Origin: a phage
Sequence record: PX994957.1
Strand: one strand, 5' to 3'
DNA: 64,000 nt
The notes under the pieces are model-generated. The model did not search any database. It worked only from the letters and a program-made list of their open reading frames with translations, and had not been told where the DNA came from. Positions 5,311 to 63,174 of the stretch are shown piece after piece. Position 1 is the stretch's first letter; every line of letters starts with the position of its first letter. The translations under genes and the position numbers were made by a program.

Positions 5311-6898
<1,588 letters not shown>

Positions 6899-13782: not shown

Positions 13783-13812
13783 ATAGTATCACACTACTAC
13801 CCTTCTGTAAAC
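13783..13812 (-). promoter_or_regulatory. sigma70-type early promoter
   Basis: minus strand GTTTAC-N18-GATACTAT. Confidence 0.5.
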
Positions 13813-14236: not shown

Positions 14237-14464
14237 TTATTGTTCAATCAATCCCATGTAAAATTCTGCGTCTTCAGAATCCATGCCATCGCAATATTCA
14301 TTAGCCATAAAGCGGGTGAGGTCTTCAAGAGGACCTTCAATAACGATTTGAATACTCCAAAACTTAGAATCTTGCACGCTTGTGATACTAAGTTCAGGAT
14401 AACGATTACGAATAATTTCTTCAATATATTCAAAATCAACGATGTCAATATCAACTTTAGCCAT
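14237..14464 (-). CDS. hypothetical acidic protein, 75 aa (start MAKVDID with AAAGAGGA RBS)
   Basis: ORF track frame; internal ATG at 14464 with strong RBS just downstream of early promoter. Confidence 0.55.
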
Positions 14465-14506
14465 ATTATTTTCCTCTTTAACTATCAGCAGTATTGCCGA
14501 TAGTTG

Positions 14507-14537
14507 TATAGTACCATGGAAGGACAAGGATGTAAAC
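14507..14537 (-). promoter_or_regulatory. sigma70-type early promoter with conserved leader box
   Basis: minus strand GTTTAC-N18-TACTAT; shares leader box with other promoters in the window. Confidence 0.55.
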
Positions 14538-14562
14538 CGTTTTGTGAAAAAATTTTTGAAAT

Positions 14563-14588
14563 AAAAAAAGGGGACCCTAGAGGTCCCC
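14563..14588 (-). terminator. rho-independent terminator downstream of gene 32
   Basis: GGGGACC-CUAGA-GGUCCCC hairpin followed by U7 on minus strand. Confidence 0.8.
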
Positions 14589-29741: not shown

Positions 29742-30202
29742 TAGTAAAGGTCCTCAGAGTAAAGTTCTTTTTCACTACCACCACGTTCAATACGTACTTG
29801 TCCAGCGTAAGTTGCAATAATCATTGCTTCTTCACGTGTCCAATAATTACTATATTGGTCAATAAACCCTTGGTCATCATCACAAACTTGTTGAGTAACT
29901 AATTGAGGTTTAACTACATCTAAAACTTCGGCCATATCTTTAGAATAATGACGAGCACCTGGAATAATAAGAGTTCGTCCATCTTTTAATTTAAAACGGT
30001 TGGCTGCGCAGACAATTCGTCGTTGATACTTTTGGTTTTCATCCCAATATGCAGTCTGCCAACATATTTCAGGAACTTCTTTTAGAATATCTTCTTCTGT
30101 GCATTTATAACCATGCGCTTTAAATTTTTCAGCAAGACTTTCTGGAGTTTCACGAGATAAAGGAACATTCAGCATTTTTAAACGATTGATAAATGGGTTC
30201 AT
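29741..30202 (-). CDS. hypothetical protein, 153 aa
   Basis: ORF track. Confidence 0.55.
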
Positions 30203-30528
30203 TTAAACCATCCTTTAATACGTTGCCACAAAGTTTTCTGTTGAGCTTTGTTAACACCAATTGAGCGAATAACTGGTTGAGATTCCTGGAATTCTTTATA
30301 ATCAGCAAGGTAAATTTCGTAAGCTGCATCTGTAAAGGAACTTATCGCTGCCATGAAATTATTGCGAATACCTACTGGAGCATCTTTACTTTCACGAATA
30401 ATCATGTATTTACCAGTCTTAATCTTTACAATAGTTCCAAGATAAGCTCCATGGTACCAAATATCCCAACCCTCTTGAGTAGGTTCTGCACAACGACGAA
30501 GTTCATTGACAATTTCTAACTTGTTCAT
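30199..30528 (-). CDS. hypothetical protein, 109 aa
   Basis: ORF track. Confidence 0.55.
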
Positions 30529-30538
30529 TATTTATTCC

Positions 30539-31174
30539 TCACAGTTCAGATGCTACAGTGATTACAGCTTCAATGTTTTCTGCCGAGCGTTTAATGTCAA
30601 GATACACATTACCGTTTTTAGCGATTTTACATGACATTCCGATATCAGTAAATTTCTGAATATGATGTTCCATCATTTTGTATCCAAAAATTCGCATATT
30701 TCCATTGTTGTTAATTTCAAAATTACGAATTCCGTGAGTACGTTTTTCTAAAATAGCGAGATAGTTACTACGATAAGTTTCAACCTTTTTAAGAACAAAT
30801 CCATTTTCATCTAAAAGTTTTAACATGAGGTCTTTATCTTCTTCCATATCAGAAGTAATTTCGCGAGCTTTACGAGTTGCTCGTTTTTTCAGTAGTTCCG
30901 GAGCATTTTCCTGTGCGTATAAAGTTGCTGCATTTGAAATAATATCCTGAGCTTCACCAGTAATGATTAATCCATCACCTGATTTCTCCACCAGGCCTTT
31001 TTTAATCAACACCCCAATATTACTATTAACTACTGCGTTACCTAAATCTGGATGCACCTCACGAACTTCTGCAGCTGTAATGAAATCTTTCTTAGCAATA
31101 GTAATTAAAATCGCAGCAGTTTTTTCATTCAGAACATCGTTAGAAGCTTTGATGATGTAAGTTACTTTAGACAT
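30539..31174 (-). CDS. motA: middle-transcription activator MotA (intact)
   Basis: 211 aa; matches recalled T4 MotA. Confidence 0.93.
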   Translation of the reverse strand: MSKVTYIIKASNDVLNEKTAAILITIAKKDFITAAEVREVHPDLGNAVVNSNIGVLIKKGLVEKSGDGLIITGEAQDIISNAATLYAQENAPELLKKRATRKAREITSDMEEDKDLMLKLLDENGFVLKKVETYRSNYLAILEKRTHGIRNFEINNNGNMRIFGYKMMEHHIQKFTDIGMSCKIAKNGNVYLDIKRSAENIEAVITVASEL

Positions 31175-31215
31175 TTTCTAATCTCCGTAATTCTGTATCA
31201 GTAGTTGATAGTTGT

Positions 31216-31245
31216 ATAGTACCACAGTATGCTTTGGTTGTAAAC
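31216..31245 (-). promoter_or_regulatory. sigma70-type early promoter for motA with conserved leader box
   Basis: minus strand GTTTAC-N18-TACTAT; leader box gtagttgatagttgtatagtacca. Confidence 0.6.
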
Positions 31246-31271
31246 CGTTTTGTGAAAAAAAAAATTAAAAT

Positions 31272-31297
31272 AAAAAAGGGAGAGCCTCGGCTCTCCC
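31272..31297 (-). terminator. rho-independent terminator (copy A)
   Basis: GGGAGAGCC-GAG-GCUCUCCC followed by U6 on minus strand. Confidence 0.7.
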
Positions 31298-31302
31298 TAA
31301 AA

Positions 31303-31452
31303 TTACTGCATGACTGTGATAACTGTCATGATAACACGTTGAATTCCGAACGCAAGAAGACCTCCTGCTACGGCTGGAACAACACCTAAACCCGCCAGTA
31401 AAATGCTACCGGATACTAATGCAGCGCTTGTAATACCTATGAATGGACTCAT
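31303..31452 (-). CDS. small hydrophobic membrane protein, 49 aa (copy A)
   Basis: own translation MSPFIGITSAALVSG...; ATG overlaps upstream stop (ATGA). Confidence 0.5.
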   Translation of the reverse strand: MSPFIGITSAALVSGSILLAGLGVVPAVAGGLLAFGIQRVIMTVITVMQ

Positions 31453-32174
31453 TTGATTTCCTCTAAATCTTTAGTGTATTCGGTAACTACATTAGTAGTT
31501 TTCCAATATTCGTTTTCTTCTTTCTTAGCTTTAGCTTCTTCAGCAAGTTTCTTTGCTTCGTCGGAAGTCATATGAAAAATATTCATTCCAACTAGTTTAT
31601 CAACATAAGAAGAATACATATCGATTTTCGAAAGTTCTTCGGTCAGTTCTTTGCGAGTTTTACCCTGCACAACGATTTCACCTGAAATTACTTTCTTAAT
31701 GAAATGTGCCTTGGCAAAGGCTAAACGAAAAGCTGACTCAGTTTCTTTGATTTTGTTATCAATTCGTTTTTGGACATAAGTTTTACGAACTTCAACAAAG
31801 TCTTTAATTAAATCAAGTTTTAACATGAGGTCTTTATCTTCTTCCATATCAGAAGTAATTTCGCGAGCTTTACGAGTTGCTCGTTTTTTCAGTAGTTCCG
31901 GAGCATTTTCCTGTGCGTATAAAGTTGCTGCATTTGAAATAATATCCTGAGCTTCACCAGTAATGATTAATCCATCACCTGATTTCTCCACCAGGCCTTT
32001 TTTAATCAACACCCCAATATTACTATTAACTACTGCGTTACCTAAATCTGGATGCACCTCACGAACTTCTGCAGCTGTAATGAAATCTTTCTTAGCAATA
32101 GTAATTAAAATCGCAGCAGTTTTTTCATTCAGAACATCGTTAGAAGCTTTGATGATGTAAGTTACTTTAGACAT
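31449..32174 (-). CDS. chimeric ORF: MotA residues 1-120 fused in frame to gp52 residues 322-442
   Basis: 241-aa ORF; N-terminal half identical to motA, C-terminal half identical to the gene 52 3' end; lies on the duplication junction 31816/31817. Confidence 0.8.
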   Translation of the reverse strand: MSKVTYIIKASNDVLNEKTAAILITIAKKDFITAAEVREVHPDLGNAVVNSNIGVLIKKGLVEKSGDGLIITGEAQDIISNAATLYAQENAPELLKKRATRKAREITSDMEEDKDLMLKLDLIKDFVEVRKTYVQKRIDNKIKETESAFRLAFAKAHFIKKVISGEIVVQGKTRKELTEELSKIDMYSSYVDKLVGMNIFHMTSDEAKKLAEEAKAKKEENEYWKTTNVVTEYTKDLEEIK

Positions 32175-32215
32175 TTTCTAATCTCCGTAATTCTGTATCA
32201 GTAGTTGATAGTTGT

Positions 32216-32245
32216 ATAGTACCACAGTATGCTTTGGTTGTAAAC
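32216..32245 (-). promoter_or_regulatory. duplicate copy of the motA early promoter, now upstream of the chimeric ORF
   Basis: identical to 31216-31245. Confidence 0.6.
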
Positions 32246-32271
32246 CGTTTTGTGAAAAAAAAAATTAAAAT

Positions 32272-32297
32272 AAAAAAGGGAGAGCCTCGGCTCTCCC
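32272..32297 (-). terminator. rho-independent terminator (copy B)
   Basis: identical to 31272-31297. Confidence 0.7.
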
Positions 32298-32302
32298 TAA
32301 AA

Positions 32303-32452
32303 TTACTGCATGACTGTGATAACTGTCATGATAACACGTTGAATTCCGAACGCAAGAAGACCTCCTGCTACGGCTGGAACAACACCTAAACCCGCCAGTA
32401 AAATGCTACCGGATACTAATGCAGCGCTTGTAATACCTATGAATGGACTCAT
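32303..32452 (-). CDS. small hydrophobic membrane protein, 49 aa (copy B)
   Basis: identical to 31303-31452. Confidence 0.5.
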   Translation of the reverse strand: MSPFIGITSAALVSGSILLAGLGVVPAVAGGLLAFGIQRVIMTVITVMQ

Positions 32453-33777
32453 TTGATTTCCTCTAAATCTTTAGTGTATTCGGTAACTACATTAGTAGTT
32501 TTCCAATATTCGTTTTCTTCTTTCTTAGCTTTAGCTTCTTCAGCAAGTTTCTTTGCTTCGTCGGAAGTCATATGAAAAATATTCATTCCAACTAGTTTAT
32601 CAACATAAGAAGAATACATATCGATTTTCGAAAGTTCTTCGGTCAGTTCTTTGCGAGTTTTACCCTGCACAACGATTTCACCTGAAATTACTTTCTTAAT
32701 GAAATGTGCCTTGGCAAAGGCTAAACGAAAAGCTGACTCAGTTTCTTTGATTTTGTTATCAATTCGTTTTTGGACATAAGTTTTACGAACTTCAACAAAG
32801 TCTTTAATTAAATCAACTACGTTATCGTAAACTTGTAGTTTTCCTTTCTCATTAATAACCGTAATATTCTGAGAACGACGCTCAATCAACCCGAAGTCTT
32901 TCATAATTTTTGCATGGCGTTCTTCTTCGTTATCGCTCAAAGAATATTCTTTACGGAATTTAACTTTGAATCCAAAACCATGCTCACCACAAGCATCATC
33001 CCATGTAATGAAGCCTTTATCTTCAAGTGGGTCTAAGATTTTACTCACATAAGTTTCACGATCATACTTATACGGAATCTCAGTGATATGCATTTGAGTT
33101 CGTGAAGTAAACTTATATGTTCCACGAATTTCATATTGGCCATCAATCTCAACGACTTCACCACGAAATTCTGGGAATTCTACCTTCGGTTTAGTTACTT
33201 TCTTTCCTTGAAGAGCTTGTAATACAGCTTTCTTAACAGAAGAAACACTATGAGGAAGAATGTAAGTTGCATAACCAGTTGCAATACCGGAAACACCATT
33301 AAGAAGAACAGTAGGAATAATAGGCAAATAGAAAGCAGGCGGAATGTGTTCTTTATCTTGATGTACCGGAGCATATTCAGTATCTTTATATACGTTATAG
33401 AAATTTTTACTTACACGAGCAAAAATATAACGACTTGCTGCTGCTTTTTGGACGGTACGAGAACCAAAGTTTCCTTGACCATCTAACAGAGGAAAATTAT
33501 TATTCCAAGTGTTAGCCATCAAAGCACCTGCGTCTTGCGCAGAGTTTTCACCATGATGATATCCAAGGTCCGCTACACCACCTGCAATAGAAGCGAGTTT
33601 GTGAAACTTATCTTTATTTCCTCGTGCCAAATCAAGAGCTCGAGCAATAACAAATCGTTGAACTGGCTTAAATCCGTCAATCATATTTGGAATGGCACGA
33701 TTTTCAACCGTGTACATAGCATAAGCCAATGCTTCATTATCAATGATACTTTTTAAATCGCGATTATTCAGTTGCAT
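32449..33777 (-). CDS. 52: DNA topoisomerase II medium subunit gp52 (GyrA-like, intact)
   Basis: 442 aa; catalytic-Tyr region AASRYI; T4 synteny. Confidence 0.93.
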   Translation of the reverse strand: MQLNNRDLKSIIDNEALAYAMYTVENRAIPNMIDGFKPVQRFVIARALDLARGNKDKFHKLASIAGGVADLGYHHGENSAQDAGALMANTWNNNFPLLDGQGNFGSRTVQKAAASRYIFARVSKNFYNVYKDTEYAPVHQDKEHIPPAFYLPIIPTVLLNGVSGIATGYATYILPHSVSSVKKAVLQALQGKKVTKPKVEFPEFRGEVVEIDGQYEIRGTYKFTSRTQMHITEIPYKYDRETYVSKILDPLEDKGFITWDDACGEHGFGFKVKFRKEYSLSDNEEERHAKIMKDFGLIERRSQNITVINEKGKLQVYDNVVDLIKDFVEVRKTYVQKRIDNKIKETESAFRLAFAKAHFIKKVISGEIVVQGKTRKELTEELSKIDMYSSYVDKLVGMNIFHMTSDEAKKLAEEAKAKKEENEYWKTTNVVTEYTKDLEEIK

Positions 33778-33781
33778 AAAT

Positions 33782-33928
33782 TTACCATACTAGTGAATGT
33801 AGTGCCATAATAACATCAGAAATGAAAAGCACGACTTGAATTAATCCGAACATTACTCCATAATATAGTGCTACTAATAAAGTAGCAAGGGCTAATGAAT
33901 AGCCCAAGATTTTCTTAATCATTTTCAT
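33782..33928 (-). CDS. small hydrophobic membrane protein, 48 aa
   Basis: own translation MKMIKKILGYSLALATLLVAL... Confidence 0.4.
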   Translation of the reverse strand: MKMIKKILGYSLALATLLVALYYGVMFGLIQVVLFISDVIMALHSLVW

Positions 33929-34067
33929 TTAATAGCCAAAACAATGATAAAATTGCTAATACGCCTTGAGCTGTTGCTTGTAAAAATACTGAAGTTTCTC
34001 CAGTTATTACTGTTCCGGCGAATAAAAAGGACCAGCAGAAAAAGGCTATACCATAAACAAATTTCAT
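33915..34067 (-). CDS. ac: small hydrophobic membrane protein, 50 aa (position and size like T4 ac)
   Basis: own translation MKFVYGIAFFCWSFLFAG...; immediately downstream of stp. Confidence 0.4.
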   Translation of the reverse strand: MKFVYGIAFFCWSFLFAGTVITGETSVFLQATAQGVLAILSLFWLLNEND

Positions 34068-35223: not shown

Positions 35224-35323
35224 AATAAGCGTTTAACATATCAATCATTAAAACGATTGGGAATATACTCAAAACTATTAGTATTATAACTACATTCCAT
35301 ATAGCTTTAACAATCTTTTTCAT
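35210..35323 (-). CDS. small membrane protein, 37 aa (MKKIVKAIWNVVIILIVL...)
   Basis: internal ATG with GGAGGAA RBS directly downstream of early promoter. Confidence 0.45.
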   Translation of the reverse strand: MKKIVKAIWNVVIILIVLSIFPIVLMIDMLNAYFGFM

Positions 35324-35350
35324 TTTGTGTTCCTCCGTAGTTGATAGTTG

Positions 35351-35381
35351 TATAGTACCACAGAGGAACAGTCTTGTAAAC
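35351..35381 (-). promoter_or_regulatory. sigma70-type early promoter with conserved leader box
   Basis: minus strand GTTTAC-N18-TACTAT. Confidence 0.55.
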
Positions 35382-35598
35382 AACTTTTTTAAAAATATTC
35401 GTAATAAATGTGAATACCAACTACTACCGCTGAAACCTGTGCAACCCACCACGCGCAAGCAATAAGTACAGAATTAAAAATTTTCATAATAACCTCATCA
35501 CAAAAGTAAATGTTAAACAAATTAATGGAATACTAATTAACCAAACAAAACACCACCATAATGAACTCATAGTTCAATCTCAACGATTTTCATTTTAC

Positions 35599-35817
35599 TC
35601 AATAATCCGCTAAAAGATCGACGATTGCATCACGAAGACACTTATTCGCAATACGTTTAAGAGCAATTTCAGTTTCTGGAGCATTTTGAATAATCATTGA
35701 ATTCAATTCAGCCTCAGCAAACTGAAGTTCTTTAACTAATTCAGCTTTATATTTTCCTTGCCCTTTCTTAGCTTTTGCTCGTTTTAATTCAGCTGTAGTA
35801 AACATTTTATTCTCCAA
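35599..35817 (-). CDS. hypothetical basic protein, about 69-72 aa
   Basis: ORF track. Confidence 0.5.
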   Translation of the reverse strand: MENKMFTTAELKRAKAKKGQGKYKAELVKELQFAEAELNSMIIQNAPETEIALKRIANKCLRDAIVDLLADY

Positions 35818-35838
35818 ATCCGTATCAGTTGATAGTTG

Positions 35839-35869
35839 TATATTACCACAGTCCTTGTGGTATGTAAAC
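35839..35869 (-). promoter_or_regulatory. sigma70-type early promoter with CCACA-N5-TGTGG palindrome between -35 and -10
   Basis: minus strand GTTTAC ... CCACAAGGACTGTGG TAATAT. Confidence 0.55.
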
Positions 35870-35884
35870 CGTTTGTGAAAATTT

Positions 35885-36442
35885 TTAAATGGAAAGATAC
35901 CATCCGTTGTAGTTGCTTTTTCTTACAACCTTACGAAGGTCTTCTCTGTCACCGATGAACTTCGGAGTGTACTGGATGACACCTGGATGAATTTCTTTAG
36001 TGTTGAATATAATTATACAGTCAGCGACTTGATGATTTAGAATGGGCCCTAAATTTATTCCAGAACCATATGGATACTCTCCGCTGCATCCCGTTGTTAC
36101 CGAAATCCAACGCGAGTCAGTTTGATGTGTTTTGACTTCTACACGAAGCCCGCAATATTTTGGATGCGCTAAAACATCCCATGCATACGTGTACGGGTCA
36201 TTAACGTCCTCTTGGCCTTTGTTAACATACCCGCTTAGCCAATCTGCTACAAAAAACTCTGCGTACACCGCGATACGGCATCTTTCGATAACTTCTGCTT
36301 TATCCTGGTTCGGGTTTTGTTTTAAAGAGTATCTTGCTGTATCAGCAATTTTGACCTTCATTTCACTAGTCAAATCACTGTTCGATAGGGTAAATGTCGG
36401 AATCTGAAATAGTCTCTGTAAACCCGGATTCGTTTTCTGCAT
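35885..36442 (-). CDS. denB: endonuclease IV
   Basis: 185 aa; size and position as T4 denB. Confidence 0.8.
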   Translation of the reverse strand: MQKTNPGLQRLFQIPTFTLSNSDLTSEMKVKIADTARYSLKQNPNQDKAEVIERCRIAVYAEFFVADWLSGYVNKGQEDVNDPYTYAWDVLAHPKYCGLRVEVKTHQTDSRWISVTTGCSGEYPYGSGINLGPILNHQVADCIIIFNTKEIHPGVIQYTPKFIGDREDLRKVVRKSNYNGWYLSI

Positions 36443-40330: not shown

Positions 40331-40360
40331 ATTATACCACATCCTTGTGGTAAAGTAAAC
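40331..40360 (-). promoter_or_regulatory. sigma70-type early promoter with extended -10 (TGTGGTATAAT) and CCACA-N4-TGTGG palindrome
   Basis: minus strand GTTTAC-N17-TATAAT. Confidence 0.65.
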
Positions 40361-43722: not shown

Positions 43723-44004
43723 TTAATTGAACAGTGGAGCGATGCGTTTCAGAAGAGTAGCAGCACCTTTAGCGAATTTTACATCATGAAAAACAGTTTC
43801 TTCTTCCGTTACAACACGAGCTTTAATGTTTTCACAATCCCAATTTTTGCGAACAATCTTCAAAAGCTGCAGTAAATCTTTACATTCAGCAATATCGATA
43901 ACACATCCACGAGAATCTTCCATTATTGCACGATAACCGTAAGCCATACCATAATCGTTGAAAGATTGCTCGATGATAATTAAGTTTTCCATTTTATTCT
44001 CCAA
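43723..44004 (-). CDS. hypothetical protein, 93 aa
   Basis: ORF track; promoter-like leader box upstream. Confidence 0.55.
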   Translation of the reverse strand: MENKMENLIIIEQSFNDYGMAYGYRAIMEDSRGCVIDIAECKDLLQLLKIVRKNWDCENIKARVVTEEETVFHDVKFAKGAATLLKRIAPLFN

Positions 44005-44088
44005 GTTATTTTCTGTATCAGTAGTTGATATTGATATAGTACCATAATCAACTACTGATGTATATAGTTTTATGAAAAAATTTAAACT

Positions 44089-55335: not shown

Positions 55336-55503
55336 TTTTACTCTTCTTTTTCTTTAGATTCCTCTTTCTTCTTTTTAGGAATCTGTTCAGGACCTTTATT
55401 TACTACAGCGCCCGACGTTGTTCCAGTAGAGATATTTTCAGGATTACCACCTGAATCTCCAGCGACCATATCTTCTTTGATAAATTCTTTATATGTTTTC
55501 ATA

Positions 55504-55860
55504 TTAACCTCTATTCATAAAAGCATTAAAAATTTGGTCATCAATAGATGGAATAGCAACCTTTTCGGCATCATTTAGCAAATCATTAATTTCATCAGAT
55601 AGCATAACACATGTGCCTTTATTTCCTGTAATTGTTACTGCGCAATTACGAACGTTTTCTTTATCAAATTTTAGGTTAATATTTTCGTAGTGAAAATCCT
55701 TTAATGCCGAATATATCTTTAAAATGAAATTGTCTTTTACTACAATAAACCCAACCTCACTATTAAAACGTGGTTCATGGAAACTGTAATAAACCTTTTC
55801 ATCTATAAAATCGTATGAAATTTTTTCCATTTTTAAATATGAAAATTCAGAACTATACAT
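55504..55860 (-). CDS. hypothetical protein, 118 aa (61.1 position); shares a C-terminal tail with the next ORF
   Basis: ORF track; tail SIDDQIFNAFMNRG. Confidence 0.55.
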   Translation of the reverse strand: MYSSEFSYLKMEKISYDFIDEKVYYSFHEPRFNSEVGFIVVKDNFILKIYSALKDFHYENINLKFDKENVRNCAVTITGNKGTCVMLSDEINDLLNDAEKVAIPSIDDQIFNAFMNRG

Positions 55861-55861
55861 A

Positions 55862-56503
55862 TTAACCTTTATTCATAAAAGCATTAAAAATTTGATCATC
55901 AATAGAAACATTTACTTTAGACTGTTTTTCTGATGGTAATTCATATCCACATATTACAATTTTGTGATCAATATCAAAATACACAGAAGCAATATGATTA
56001 ATGATGTTTTCAGTAAAGTCTAAATCAACATCAATATCTTTTTGACCACAGCCCAAAGGATAAATAATGCGAGTAATTCGATTATCTTTAACAAATATTC
56101 CACCGACATACTCTGTGCTGCGTTTAAAGTTTACACGTTTCCTAAATGAAAAATATTCAGGTTCTTTATGAGCCCGACTCATAGGACACAATGAGTAGCT
56201 AGAATAAGAGATGTCAAATCCTACACCTTCAATATGAGCCAACGCGTCATGATTAAACCAATTATAATCATATGCCAAATCCATTATATTGTAATATGTG
56301 AAAGGCACCGGATTAACATCATGTGTTGTACCTTTAAAATCTGCCCAGGCAACGATTTCGTTATCTTTAACAATTACAAAAATTGTGTCAATAAGATATC
56401 CACGGTTATTTTCATCAGGCGTTATATTATAACATTGTGCATCAGGAAATTTACCGTATTTAAACGGTGGATTTTTGTGCATATAATAAATCATATTATT
56501 CAC
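55862..56503 (-). CDS. hypothetical protein, 213 aa (61.2 position)
   Basis: ORF track; tail SIDDQIFNAFMNKG. Confidence 0.55.
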   Translation of the reverse strand: MNNMIYYMHKNPPFKYGKFPDAQCYNITPDENNRGYLIDTIFVIVKDNEIVAWADFKGTTHDVNPVPFTYYNIMDLAYDYNWFNHDALAHIEGVGFDISYSSYSLCPMSRAHKEPEYFSFRKRVNFKRSTEYVGGIFVKDNRITRIIYPLGCGQKDIDVDLDFTENIINHIASVYFDIDHKIVICGYELPSEKQSKVNVSIDDQIFNAFMNKG

Positions 56504-62767: not shown

Positions 62768-63004
62768 TCAAATGCAAGTAGTAATTACTCCAGTAGTGCT
62801 TATGCAGGTATTACCAATTTGCACACCTAAAGATCCATTTGTATTCACATGAAGATTATCATCAATTTTAACTGATATTTTACCATTAGTGTGAATAACG
62901 GTGCTAGATTCAATCACAGGTTGAGTATCATTTTCAACACTAACAAATGGAACTGCTGCTAATGCAACTAAACAAACTGCTAAGCATCCCATAACAATTT
63001 TCAT
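62768..63004 (-). CDS. secreted/membrane protein, about 78 aa (start MKIVMG with GGAG RBS)
   Basis: ORF track frame; signal-peptide-like N-terminus; early promoter upstream. Confidence 0.5.
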   Translation of the reverse strand: MKIVMGCLAVCLVALAAVPFVSVENDTQPVIESSTVIHTNGKISVKIDDNLHVNTNGSLGVQIGNTCISTTGVITTCI

Positions 63005-63040
63005 TTTATTCTCCAAATCCGTATCAGTAGTTGATAGTTG

Positions 63041-63071
63041 TATAGTACCATGGAAGAACATTCTTGTAAAC
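63041..63071 (-). promoter_or_regulatory. sigma70-type early promoter with conserved leader box
   Basis: minus strand GTTTAC-N18-TACTAT. Confidence 0.55.
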
Positions 63072-63158
63072 AGTTTTGTGAAAATTTTTTAGGGAATTTT
63101 AAATGTCCAGAATCATCTGTTTTTCATAAGTATAGATTTATATTACTTGTATGAAAAA

Positions 63159-63174
63159 GGGACCCGGAGGTCCC
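63159..63174 (-). terminator. rho-independent terminator downstream of gene 43
   Basis: GGGACC-UCCG-GGUCCC followed by U5 on minus strand. Confidence 0.7.

Follow-up and report, generated by a model that had tools for sequence, protein, structure and literature searches.

Introduction

Phage T4 early (Pe) promoters have been catalogued by Liebig & Rueger (1989), Wilkens & Rueger (1994) and Miller et al. (2003), works to which the account of early transcription in Hinton (2010, PMC2988021) refers. Their consensus is an 'uber' UP/-35/TGn/-10 promoter, with GTTTAC at -36 to -31 and TGTG(A/G)TA(C/T)(A/T)AT further downstream (Hinton 2010, PMC2988021; Nolan 2006). A differential RNA-seq data set for T4 is available (bioRxiv 10.1101/2024.04.04.588121, GSE255091).

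The promoter-early stem-loop (PeSL) cassettes were described in RB49/phi1 (Arbiol 2010, PMC2839356), and crossovers of the RB49 mini-circles were mapped between the -10 and the Shine-Dalgarno (SD)/ATG (Arbiol 2010, PMC2839356). Comeau, Arbiol & Krisch (2014, PMC4122927) reported PeSLs in T4/PST and nt-1/KVP40, gave the T4/PST consensus as TTTACW-N17-TAYWAT within an alignment that starts at the AT-rich region and ends with the start codon, found PeSLs enriched in hyperplastic regions, and illustrated an exchange at ndd.4/ndd.5. Both papers allow 'homologous or site-specific' recombination (PMC2839356; PMC4122927). The efficient site for RegB/S1 in T4 is the 11-nt GGAGAAUAAAA, of the general form GGAGRAYARAA, which must be single-stranded; RNA of motA is among the good substrates of RegB (Durand 2006, PMC1702504).

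Here we analyse a 64,000-nt stretch of phage DNA (record PX994957.1), referred to below as the window. An initial annotation of this stretch had drawn attention to a recurrent box at early promoters, and had raised the possibility that the promoters are PeSL-like cassettes, a kind of repeat that has been proposed to mediate modular shuffling in T4-type phages.

Results

Identity and integrity of the window

The window is a segment of a Tequatrovirus (T4-like) genome. Megablast of positions 30000-34000 matched 948 phage records, nearly all of them T4-like, the closest being the Escherichia phages CAM-21, G157lw and wV7 (97-99% identity). The T4 gene order is kept, from 31.1/cd through frd, 32, 59, 33, dsbA and rnh, then 34-38 and t, followed by asiA, arn, motA, 52, ac, ndd, denB, rIIB, rIIA, 60/39, cef, motB, dexA and dda, and on to 43. 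The box was read on the minus strand, because this is the strand of the prereplicative genes. Relatives were compared through INPHARED records, and a pattern scan of IMG/VR yielded 12 loci on a few contigs. Identity to G157lw is 100% over positions 1-1300, 93.7% across the frd.3 promoter locus (14440-14580) and 99.3% between 30 and 34 kb, so that the window genome is a mosaic when set against its closest relatives in the database.

Positions 30815-31814 are repeated exactly at 31815-32814, a 1000-bp tandem duplication which, as the initial annotation had noted, includes one copy of the box (at 32195). The duplication creates a chimeric ORF made up of the 5' portion of motA and the 3' portion of gene 52. 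It is absent from CAM-21, in which 52-motA.1-motA occur without a repeat, and among the related records listed (out of 478 that match most of a 4001-nt query) the match is in two pieces over about 3001 nt. It has the look of an artefact, produced by assembly or by the construction of the window, and not of a biological feature. Since it is absent from relatives, the copy at 32195 is not a natural independent member of the family. At the left end, positions 1-158 are an exact copy of 500-657. A 1300-nt query from this end covers only 1142 nt in relatives, among them G157lw with 100% identity over the query, which indicates that the first 158-nt copy is extra; T4 has the junction at 500 as a natural one.

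A conserved box in seven promoter copies

The box is present in seven minus-strand copies sharing TGGTACTAT-ACAACTATC(AACTAC(TGATAC)), six of them natural and one within the tandem duplication. A repeat search returned seven in-register copies, at 14495, 31203, 32203, 35339, 35827, 44023 and 63029, in agreement to within a few bases with the positions given in the initial annotation. That annotation had called for a motif scan; over the window, GTATCAGTAGTTGATAGTTGTATAGTACCA is found as an exact 30-mer at three places (31195, 32195 and 63021) and at 44015 with three mismatches, against a chance expectation of 0.00. Chance or compositional repetition as the source of the box was ruled out by shuffles. 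The shared length is 30 nt in the motA copy, its duplicate and the copy at 63021, 24 nt at 35339, where the box stops at ACTAC, and 18 nt at 14499; the copy at 35827 has a 3-nt deletion and one change in the -10. The copies are intergenic, oriented with the genes and situated 22-37 nt 5' of an SD and ATG, with none outside promoters. The 20-nt leader part of the box likewise did not occur in the window away from these promoters.

About 19 early-promoter-like sites are present on the minus strand of the window, and the box occurs on six natural ones. A simple sigma-70 scan finds the box sites, and five of the six TG-extended -10 matches in 30.5-36.5 kb are box copies. Mean pairwise identity within the box family, compared with that among the 13 other early-promoter-like sites, is 0.74 versus 0.56 for the UP/-35 block, 0.96 versus 0.73 for the TGn/-10 block, and 0.80 versus 0.34 for the block from -6 to +9, whereas the spacer is at background in both sets (0.35 versus 0.32). 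Thus the box family shares two blocks, but not the spacer between them. Random-like spacers (0.35) between near-identical blocks are not what simple recent duplication or long-tract conversion would leave, and call for block selection or short tracts.

Promoter anatomy of the box modules

Read on the minus strand, the copies follow one plan, namely an UP element (AAAATTTTTTCACAAAAC), G-TTTACA, a 17-nt spacer, TGG-TACTAT, ACAACT, A(+1)TCAACTACTGATAC, GGAG and ATG (Table 1). All copies thus have T4 early-promoter anatomy with a predicted +1, which bears out the placing of the box over the -10 region and the first transcribed bases in the initial annotation. The box is likely to comprise the TGn/-10 element, the discriminator and the initial ~15 transcribed bases that characterise a single paralogous subfamily among the immediate-early promoters of Tequatrovirus. 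Beyond general knowledge on motA, we infer the +1 A and the early activity of these promoters.

Table 1. Coordinates of the box promoter modules and of the small ORFs behind them (positions in the window).
Feature	Coordinates	Strand	-35	-10	Predicted +1	ATG	Other elements
frd.3 module	14464..14588	-	GTTTACA 14531-14537	TGn/-10 TGGTACTAT 14508-14516	A 14501	14464	
frd.3 module, upstream part		-					gene 32 terminator hairpin 14570-14588 and T-run; UP element 14537-14558
motA early promoter module	31174..31298	-	31239-31244	TACTAT 31216-31221	31209	31174	
motA module, upstream part		-					terminator 31277-31298; UP element 31245-31266
Duplicate motA module	32174..32298	-					exact copy within the 1000-bp tandem duplication; chimeric ORF 31449..32174 downstream
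ndd.4 module	35323..35402	-	35375-35380	35352-35357	35345	35323	
68-aa accessory ORF (MFTTAELK...)	35599..35805	-					first gene behind the 35868 promoter; not in T4, FL12, HY03
Module downstream of denB	35805..35890	-	35863-35868	TAATAT 35840-35845	35833	35805	
89-aa ORF (MENLIIIEQ...)	43723..43992	-					behind the cef-side promoter
Variant module upstream of cef	43992..44086	-	TATACA 44059-44064	44036-44041	44029	43992	
78-aa accessory ORF (MKIVMGCLAV...)	62768..63004	-					between promoter and imm.1; not in T4
Module upstream of imm.1	63004..63092	-	63065-63070	63042-63047	63035	63004	

An A/T-rich UP element (about -40 to -60), AAAAATTTTTTCACAAAAC or AATATTTTTAAAAAAGTT, lies 5' of every -35. 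The initial annotation had placed a GTTTAC -35 next to each copy; GTTTAC(A) with a 17-nt spacer was found in six of the seven, but the cef-side copy (44015) has TATACA. The extended -10 is TGGTACTAT in all copies except one, which has TGGTAATAT. Leaders are 22-37 nt long and end in a GGAG Shine-Dalgarno followed by ATG, except for the frd.3 copy, which lacks GGAG. Genes behind the promoters, motA included, were assigned by synteny with T4 and CAM-21.

The full 30-nt box is present in the motA module, whose 35-nt leader carries GGAGAUUAGAA, and in the imm.1-side module, where a terminator hairpin (63159-63174) lies ~70 nt upstream and the 78-aa ORF follows the promoter. The frd.3 module, with a 37-nt leader and an 11-bp hairpin, shares the box only up to ACAACTATC. 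The ndd.4 promoter overlaps the end of ndd.5 and has the 22-nt leader AUCAACUACGGAGGAACACAAA; no terminator or stem-loop was found at this promoter. Its -35 (35380) is 488 bp from that of the denB-side promoter (35868), which drives the 68-aa ORF between denB and ndd.6, and which has a spacer hairpin (TACCACA/TGTGGTA) in addition to the 3-nt deletion in its box. The cef-side module contains in its spacer an inverted copy of the leader box, which gives a 13-bp inverted repeat (44017-44029 / 44046-44058), and its promoter is followed by the 89-aa ORF, upstream of cef. The denB-side, cef-side and imm.1-side leaders all terminate in GGAGAAUAAAAUG.

Three further observations concern the promoters themselves. 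A single type of spacer hairpin, TACCACAAGGA(C/T)GTGGTA, recurs in the box promoter at 35868 and the non-box promoter at 40359; it extends over the TGn of the -10 and resembles the stem-loops between -35 and -10 of the RB49 PeSLs. At the cef-side promoter (window 44017-44058; also T4 ~6580-6625, FL12 and HY03) the inverted leader box replaces the -35/spacer, and the perfect 13-bp inverted repeat, ATCAGTAGTTGAT / ATCAACTACTGAT, flanks the -10; its folding energy within a read-through RNA is -20.2 kcal/mol (z = -5.4). This repeat could be a quasi-palindrome-templated rearrangement, or a processing or stability signal for the motB 3' end. The -10/leader GATACTATTACCCTATCAA marks a second subfamily of early promoters, with members at 13811 (-35) in the window, at the T4 ndd.4 promoter, in HY03 (L023:37834) and in FL12 (L022:37620). 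T4 ndd.4 uses this type, and the window has the canonical box there.

Mosaic promoters indicative of gene conversion

Among the copies, identical UP/-35 and -10/leader blocks are joined to unrelated spacers, and spacer and distal-leader types assort independently. In T4, the frd.3 and nrdC.10 promoters agree at 72 of 73 positions between the terminator T-run and ACAACTATC. At the same locus the window has an e.8-type spacer (1 mismatch) in flanks that are 97-100% identical to T4, while HY03 has the window type and FL12 a third type. Over 540 records, the 141-nt frd.3 locus of the window is matched at no less than 95% identity in 253, at 90-95% in 143 and at 80-90% in 142 (T4 at 89%).

At ndd.4, the window has the canonical box where T4 has TACTATTACCCTATCAACTAT, with five clustered differences in surrounding DNA that is ~97% identical. 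From -35 to ATG the window ndd.4 promoter matches the T4 nrdC.8 promoter at 59 of 60 nt, and nrdC.8 promoters in IMG/VR are nearly identical too. The presence of different paralogue-type patches at orthologous loci (frd.3, ndd.4) in different phages indicates promoter-to-promoter gene conversion; judged from the alignments, the patch replacements, bounded as they are by shared blocks, would have arisen by homologous recombination. The RB49 crossovers mapped between the -10 and the SD/ATG (PMC2839356) fit the patch exchange seen at the box promoters.

The family in T4 and other genera

Outside its 100-110 kb interval, T4 has ~10 copies, at motA, the ndd.6 side, ndd.4 (diverged), cef (variant), imm.1, nrdC.8, nrdC.10, mobD.5, e.8 and frd.3; the box core is matched with one mismatch at mobD.5 and with three at denV. 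The 30-mer was matched in 799 phage records, and occurs at 7-9 places per genome in most Tequatrovirus among the records listed. In Mosigvirus, Dhakavirus, Jiaodavirus and Karamvirus the motA promoter still has GTTTACA and the -10, and past the -10 it has only (C)CTATCAA or CATCAA in common with T4. A Mosigvirus -10/leader 30-mer, GATATTATAGACCTATCAAAACAAATAC, occurs 7-11 times per Mosigvirus genome. This family resembles that of the box in being multi-copy, in including the motA promoter and in its position relative to the -10, but its sequence departs beyond CTATCAA, and the long box is therefore genus-specific. Each genus has a homogenised -10/leader family of its own, a pattern characteristic of concerted evolution or of selection specific to the lineage.

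Selection could be acting on a protein site. The box from -6 to +15 would then be a cis-acting element just 3' of the start in a subset of early promoters, bound by a phage or host protein, for example in their shut-off after a few minutes or in the response to Alt/ModA-modified polymerase, and it would be kept by selection and not by recombination. The box matches the -10 in conservation, next to a spacer at background, it is never found outside promoters, and it contains a small dyad, TATCA-N5-TGATA; moreover, the mechanism of the abrupt early-promoter shut-off is stated to be unexplained (Hinton 2010, PMC2988021; Uzan & Miller 2010, PMC3014915). We nevertheless consider a protein site distinctly unlikely. 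The dyad is cut or altered in natural copies, including by the 3-nt deletion at 35868 and in T4 nrdC.10, and the box stops at ACTAC in ndd.4 and nrdC.8 and gives way to other sequence after ATC in frd.3. The majority of this phage's early promoters do without the box, the motA promoters of other genera differ at box positions, and no candidate binding protein was identified. Highly improbable, too, is the proposal that the Tequatrovirus-specific box (ACAACTATCAACTACTGATAC, with the same dyad) is a putative factor-bound site controlling a subset of immediate-early promoters (the motA, imm.1, ndd, nrdC and e.8 sides), for example in their shut-off; if true, each genus would have co-evolved a box of its own. 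Short conversion tracts, together with selection for an open, A/C/U-rich mRNA start, are sufficient to explain the conserved first ~15 transcribed bases.

Leader RNA and the RegB site

The exact GGAGAAUAAAA is present, followed by UG, in three modules (35868, 44064 and 63070), the leaders of which have the 3' end UUGGAGAAUAAAAUG, containing this site. Other versions are GGAGAUUAGAA at motA and GGAGGAACACA at ndd.4, and the frd.3 leader has no GGAG or RegB site. The RegB/S1 target thus corresponds to the distal leader part of the modules, and not to the box of the initial annotation. Judging by these motifs, the leaders of the box promoters are probably RegB-sensitive.

The predicted 5' end of the transcripts, AUCA-ACUAC-UGAU, can pair from its first nucleotide, and the box might accordingly encode a 5'-terminal RNA hairpin that protects the mRNA from 5'-end-dependent decay. 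The canonical hairpin amounts to about -0.6 kcal/mol, the leaders, with two exceptions, are no more stably folded than shuffled sequence (z = +0.5 to +1.3), copies that end at ACUAC are unable to form it, and an Rfam scan of the whole window gave no match. In favour of such a structure is the frd.3 leader of the window (14476-14503), in which an 11-bp hairpin, AACUAUCGGCA/UGCUGAUAGUU, begins inside the box (-14.2 kcal/mol, z = -4.1); this hairpin is degraded by substitutions and deletions in T4, FL12 and HY03, and is therefore probably not essential. A role for leader RNA structure is thus largely refuted by folding, which offered nothing for the canonical copies, and a protective hairpin is very improbable.

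First genes behind the box promoters

In a blastn alignment with T4, the part of the window from 27.7 to 64 kb shows 11 indels or replacements. For three of these, the exact starting point is the start codon that follows a box promoter (35868, 44064 and 63070). When 17 promoters were compared with three genomes (T4, FL12 and HY03), three of the six box promoters and none of the 11 other early promoters had a first ORF whose initial 200 coding nt are lacking from T4, and from FL12 and HY03 where covered (Fisher one-sided p = 0.03). The non-box promoters 44659 and 53057 have variable DNA on their upstream side, and the association is therefore not exclusive to the box subfamily.

The denB-side promoter is followed by an 8-codon remnant in T4, by the 68-aa ORF in the window and by an unrelated ORF of ~87 aa in FL12 and HY03. 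The 68-aa ORF was found in 129 records (including T2, RB6 and RB10, and with 63% identity in Gelderlandvirus, another genus), and it lies ~2 kb from the record end, at the same locus, wherever the layout of the record permits comparison. The 89-aa ORF behind the cef-side promoter has lost ~200 bp out of frame in T4, where a remnant is left, and its first 200 coding nt are also absent from FL12 and HY03. The first gene of box transcription units is thus frequently lost or replaced. As for cassette mobility, the 68-aa ORF, through which it was traced, has an unchanged locus in the 129 records; movement of cassettes between loci is without support, and the fixed position suggests that the ORF has been lost or replaced and not moved as a cassette.

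Where ORF indels could be read, their junctions fall on 7-8-nt microhomologies at start codons. These are AAUAAAAUG / AGUAAAAUG for the 68-aa ORF and ATGAAAAT / ATGAAAAT for the 78-aa ORF, the latter read as AUGAAAAU on either side of the insert, while the cef junction is an out-of-frame GAAAA(C/T)U microhomology. Microhomology for ORF-precise deletion is apparently provided by the repeated SD-ATG context, which is the RegB-site consensus. Box-to-box recombination as the origin of the ORF indels was rejected, the junctions being read at the start-codon microhomologies.

Two side observations were made. The 68-aa and 78-aa ORFs are presence/absence differences from T4 that comprise whole small ORFs, and their junctions coincide exactly with consecutive start codons (TAAAATG / TAAAATG and ATGAAAAT / ATGAAAAT, respectively). 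In the 61.1/61.2 region, 49-nt direct repeats (55500-55548 / 55858-55906, 96% identical), each with a minus-strand SD and start codon, flank ~310 bp that are absent from T4.

Although site-specific exchange has been allowed for PeSLs and the first ORFs behind box promoters are variable, it is scarcely credible that the boxes are sites of a dedicated, integron-like recombination system moving ORF cassettes, as opposed to general homologous recombination, because the indel junctions lie at differing microhomologies at or just inside start codons (TAAAATG, ATGAAAAT, GAAAAyT), the conversion patches differ in extent, the accessory 68-aa ORF keeps its locus, and T4-type phages are not known to have an integrase-like enzyme.

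Discussion

The element studied here is already known, and the finding of the box amounts to a rediscovery of T4 early promoters, or PeSL cassettes, in another Tequatrovirus. Like the Pe promoters of T4, the box promoters have an UP element, a GTTTAC -35, a 17-nt spacer, TGn with a TAnnnT -10 and an A start, and lie upstream of prereplicative genes; the motA, imm.1, frd.3, nrdC and e.8 copies are at corresponding positions in T4. They differ in forming one high-identity subfamily (TGGTACTATACAACTATC...), whereas most Pe promoters have a TAtAAT-like -10 and an initial transcribed sequence unrelated to the box.

The likeness to PeSLs extends to the succession of AT-rich region, early promoter, SD and ATG, and to the repetition in hyperplastic regions beside indels and replacements. 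The box modules carry TTTACW-N17-TAYWAT followed by an SD and start codon, and are located beside indels or replacements between close relatives (three of six first ORFs, and the polymorphic frd.3/ndd.4 patch). The PeSL-like cassettes proposed in the initial annotation are thus supported, by an anatomy that fits the T4/PST consensus and by the already published exchange in the same ndd region (PMC4122927). Unlike PeSLs, the modules have an upstream terminator hairpin at only three of six loci (frd.3, motA and, ~70 nt away, the imm.1 side), the 35868 promoter having its spacer hairpin and the cef-side promoter its inverted repeat, and the ORF indels end at start-codon microhomologies. A further difference is that RB49 gave mini-circles, whereas here patch conversion between paralogous promoters is seen directly. 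The proposal that promoter cassettes mediate modular shuffling agrees with the patch exchange at frd.3 and ndd.4 and with the variable first ORFs at three of six loci; the ORF indels that were read, which are not box-to-box, and the traced ORF, which is fixed in place, give no support for mobile cassettes.

We put at about 80% the probability that the box belongs to a promoter/leader module, the T4/PST form of PeSL, whose copies are kept alike by gene conversion. The mechanism that we infer draws on the anatomy of the modules and on published T4 biology. E. coli sigma-70 RNA polymerase would bind the near-consensus UP element (AAAAATTTTTTCACAAAAC), the -35 GTTTACA and, across the 17-nt spacer, the extended -10 (TGgTACTAT), and would give a very strong immediate-early start of transcription at the A seven bases 3' of the -10 (AUCAACUAC...). 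The product would be a short, G-poor, unstructured leader with a terminal GGAG Shine-Dalgarno, which would be translated efficiently. Cleavage by RegB within the Shine-Dalgarno (GGAGAAUAAAA in several copies) may then lead to inactivation after the burst of early expression.

The copies would descend from a single promoter/5'-UTR module. Homologous tracts of a few tens of base pairs are reportedly enough for T4 recombination. The identical tracts of 30-73 bp may serve as substrates for the very active homologous recombination of T4, such that patches would be exchanged between copies by gene conversion. Conversion would keep the UP/-35 and the -10/leader blocks the same while reshuffling the variants of spacer and distal leader, and the first gene behind the module would be gained, lost or replaced unusually often.

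For the window, the consequence is a correct annotation of six intergenic regions as immediate-early promoters, with leaders that are probably RegB-sensitive. To the published picture our analysis adds details, namely the subfamily with identical -6 to +15 sequence, the swapping of spacer alleles at orthologous loci and the junctions at start-codon microhomologies, which refine that picture and do not change it. The results support the published PeSL idea of genome plasticity in T4-type phages without altering it. Of wider interest is the contrast between a freely varying spacer and the identity maintained over the first ~15 transcribed bases, and the box modules are a small, clear case in which promoter modules are themselves substrates for recombination.
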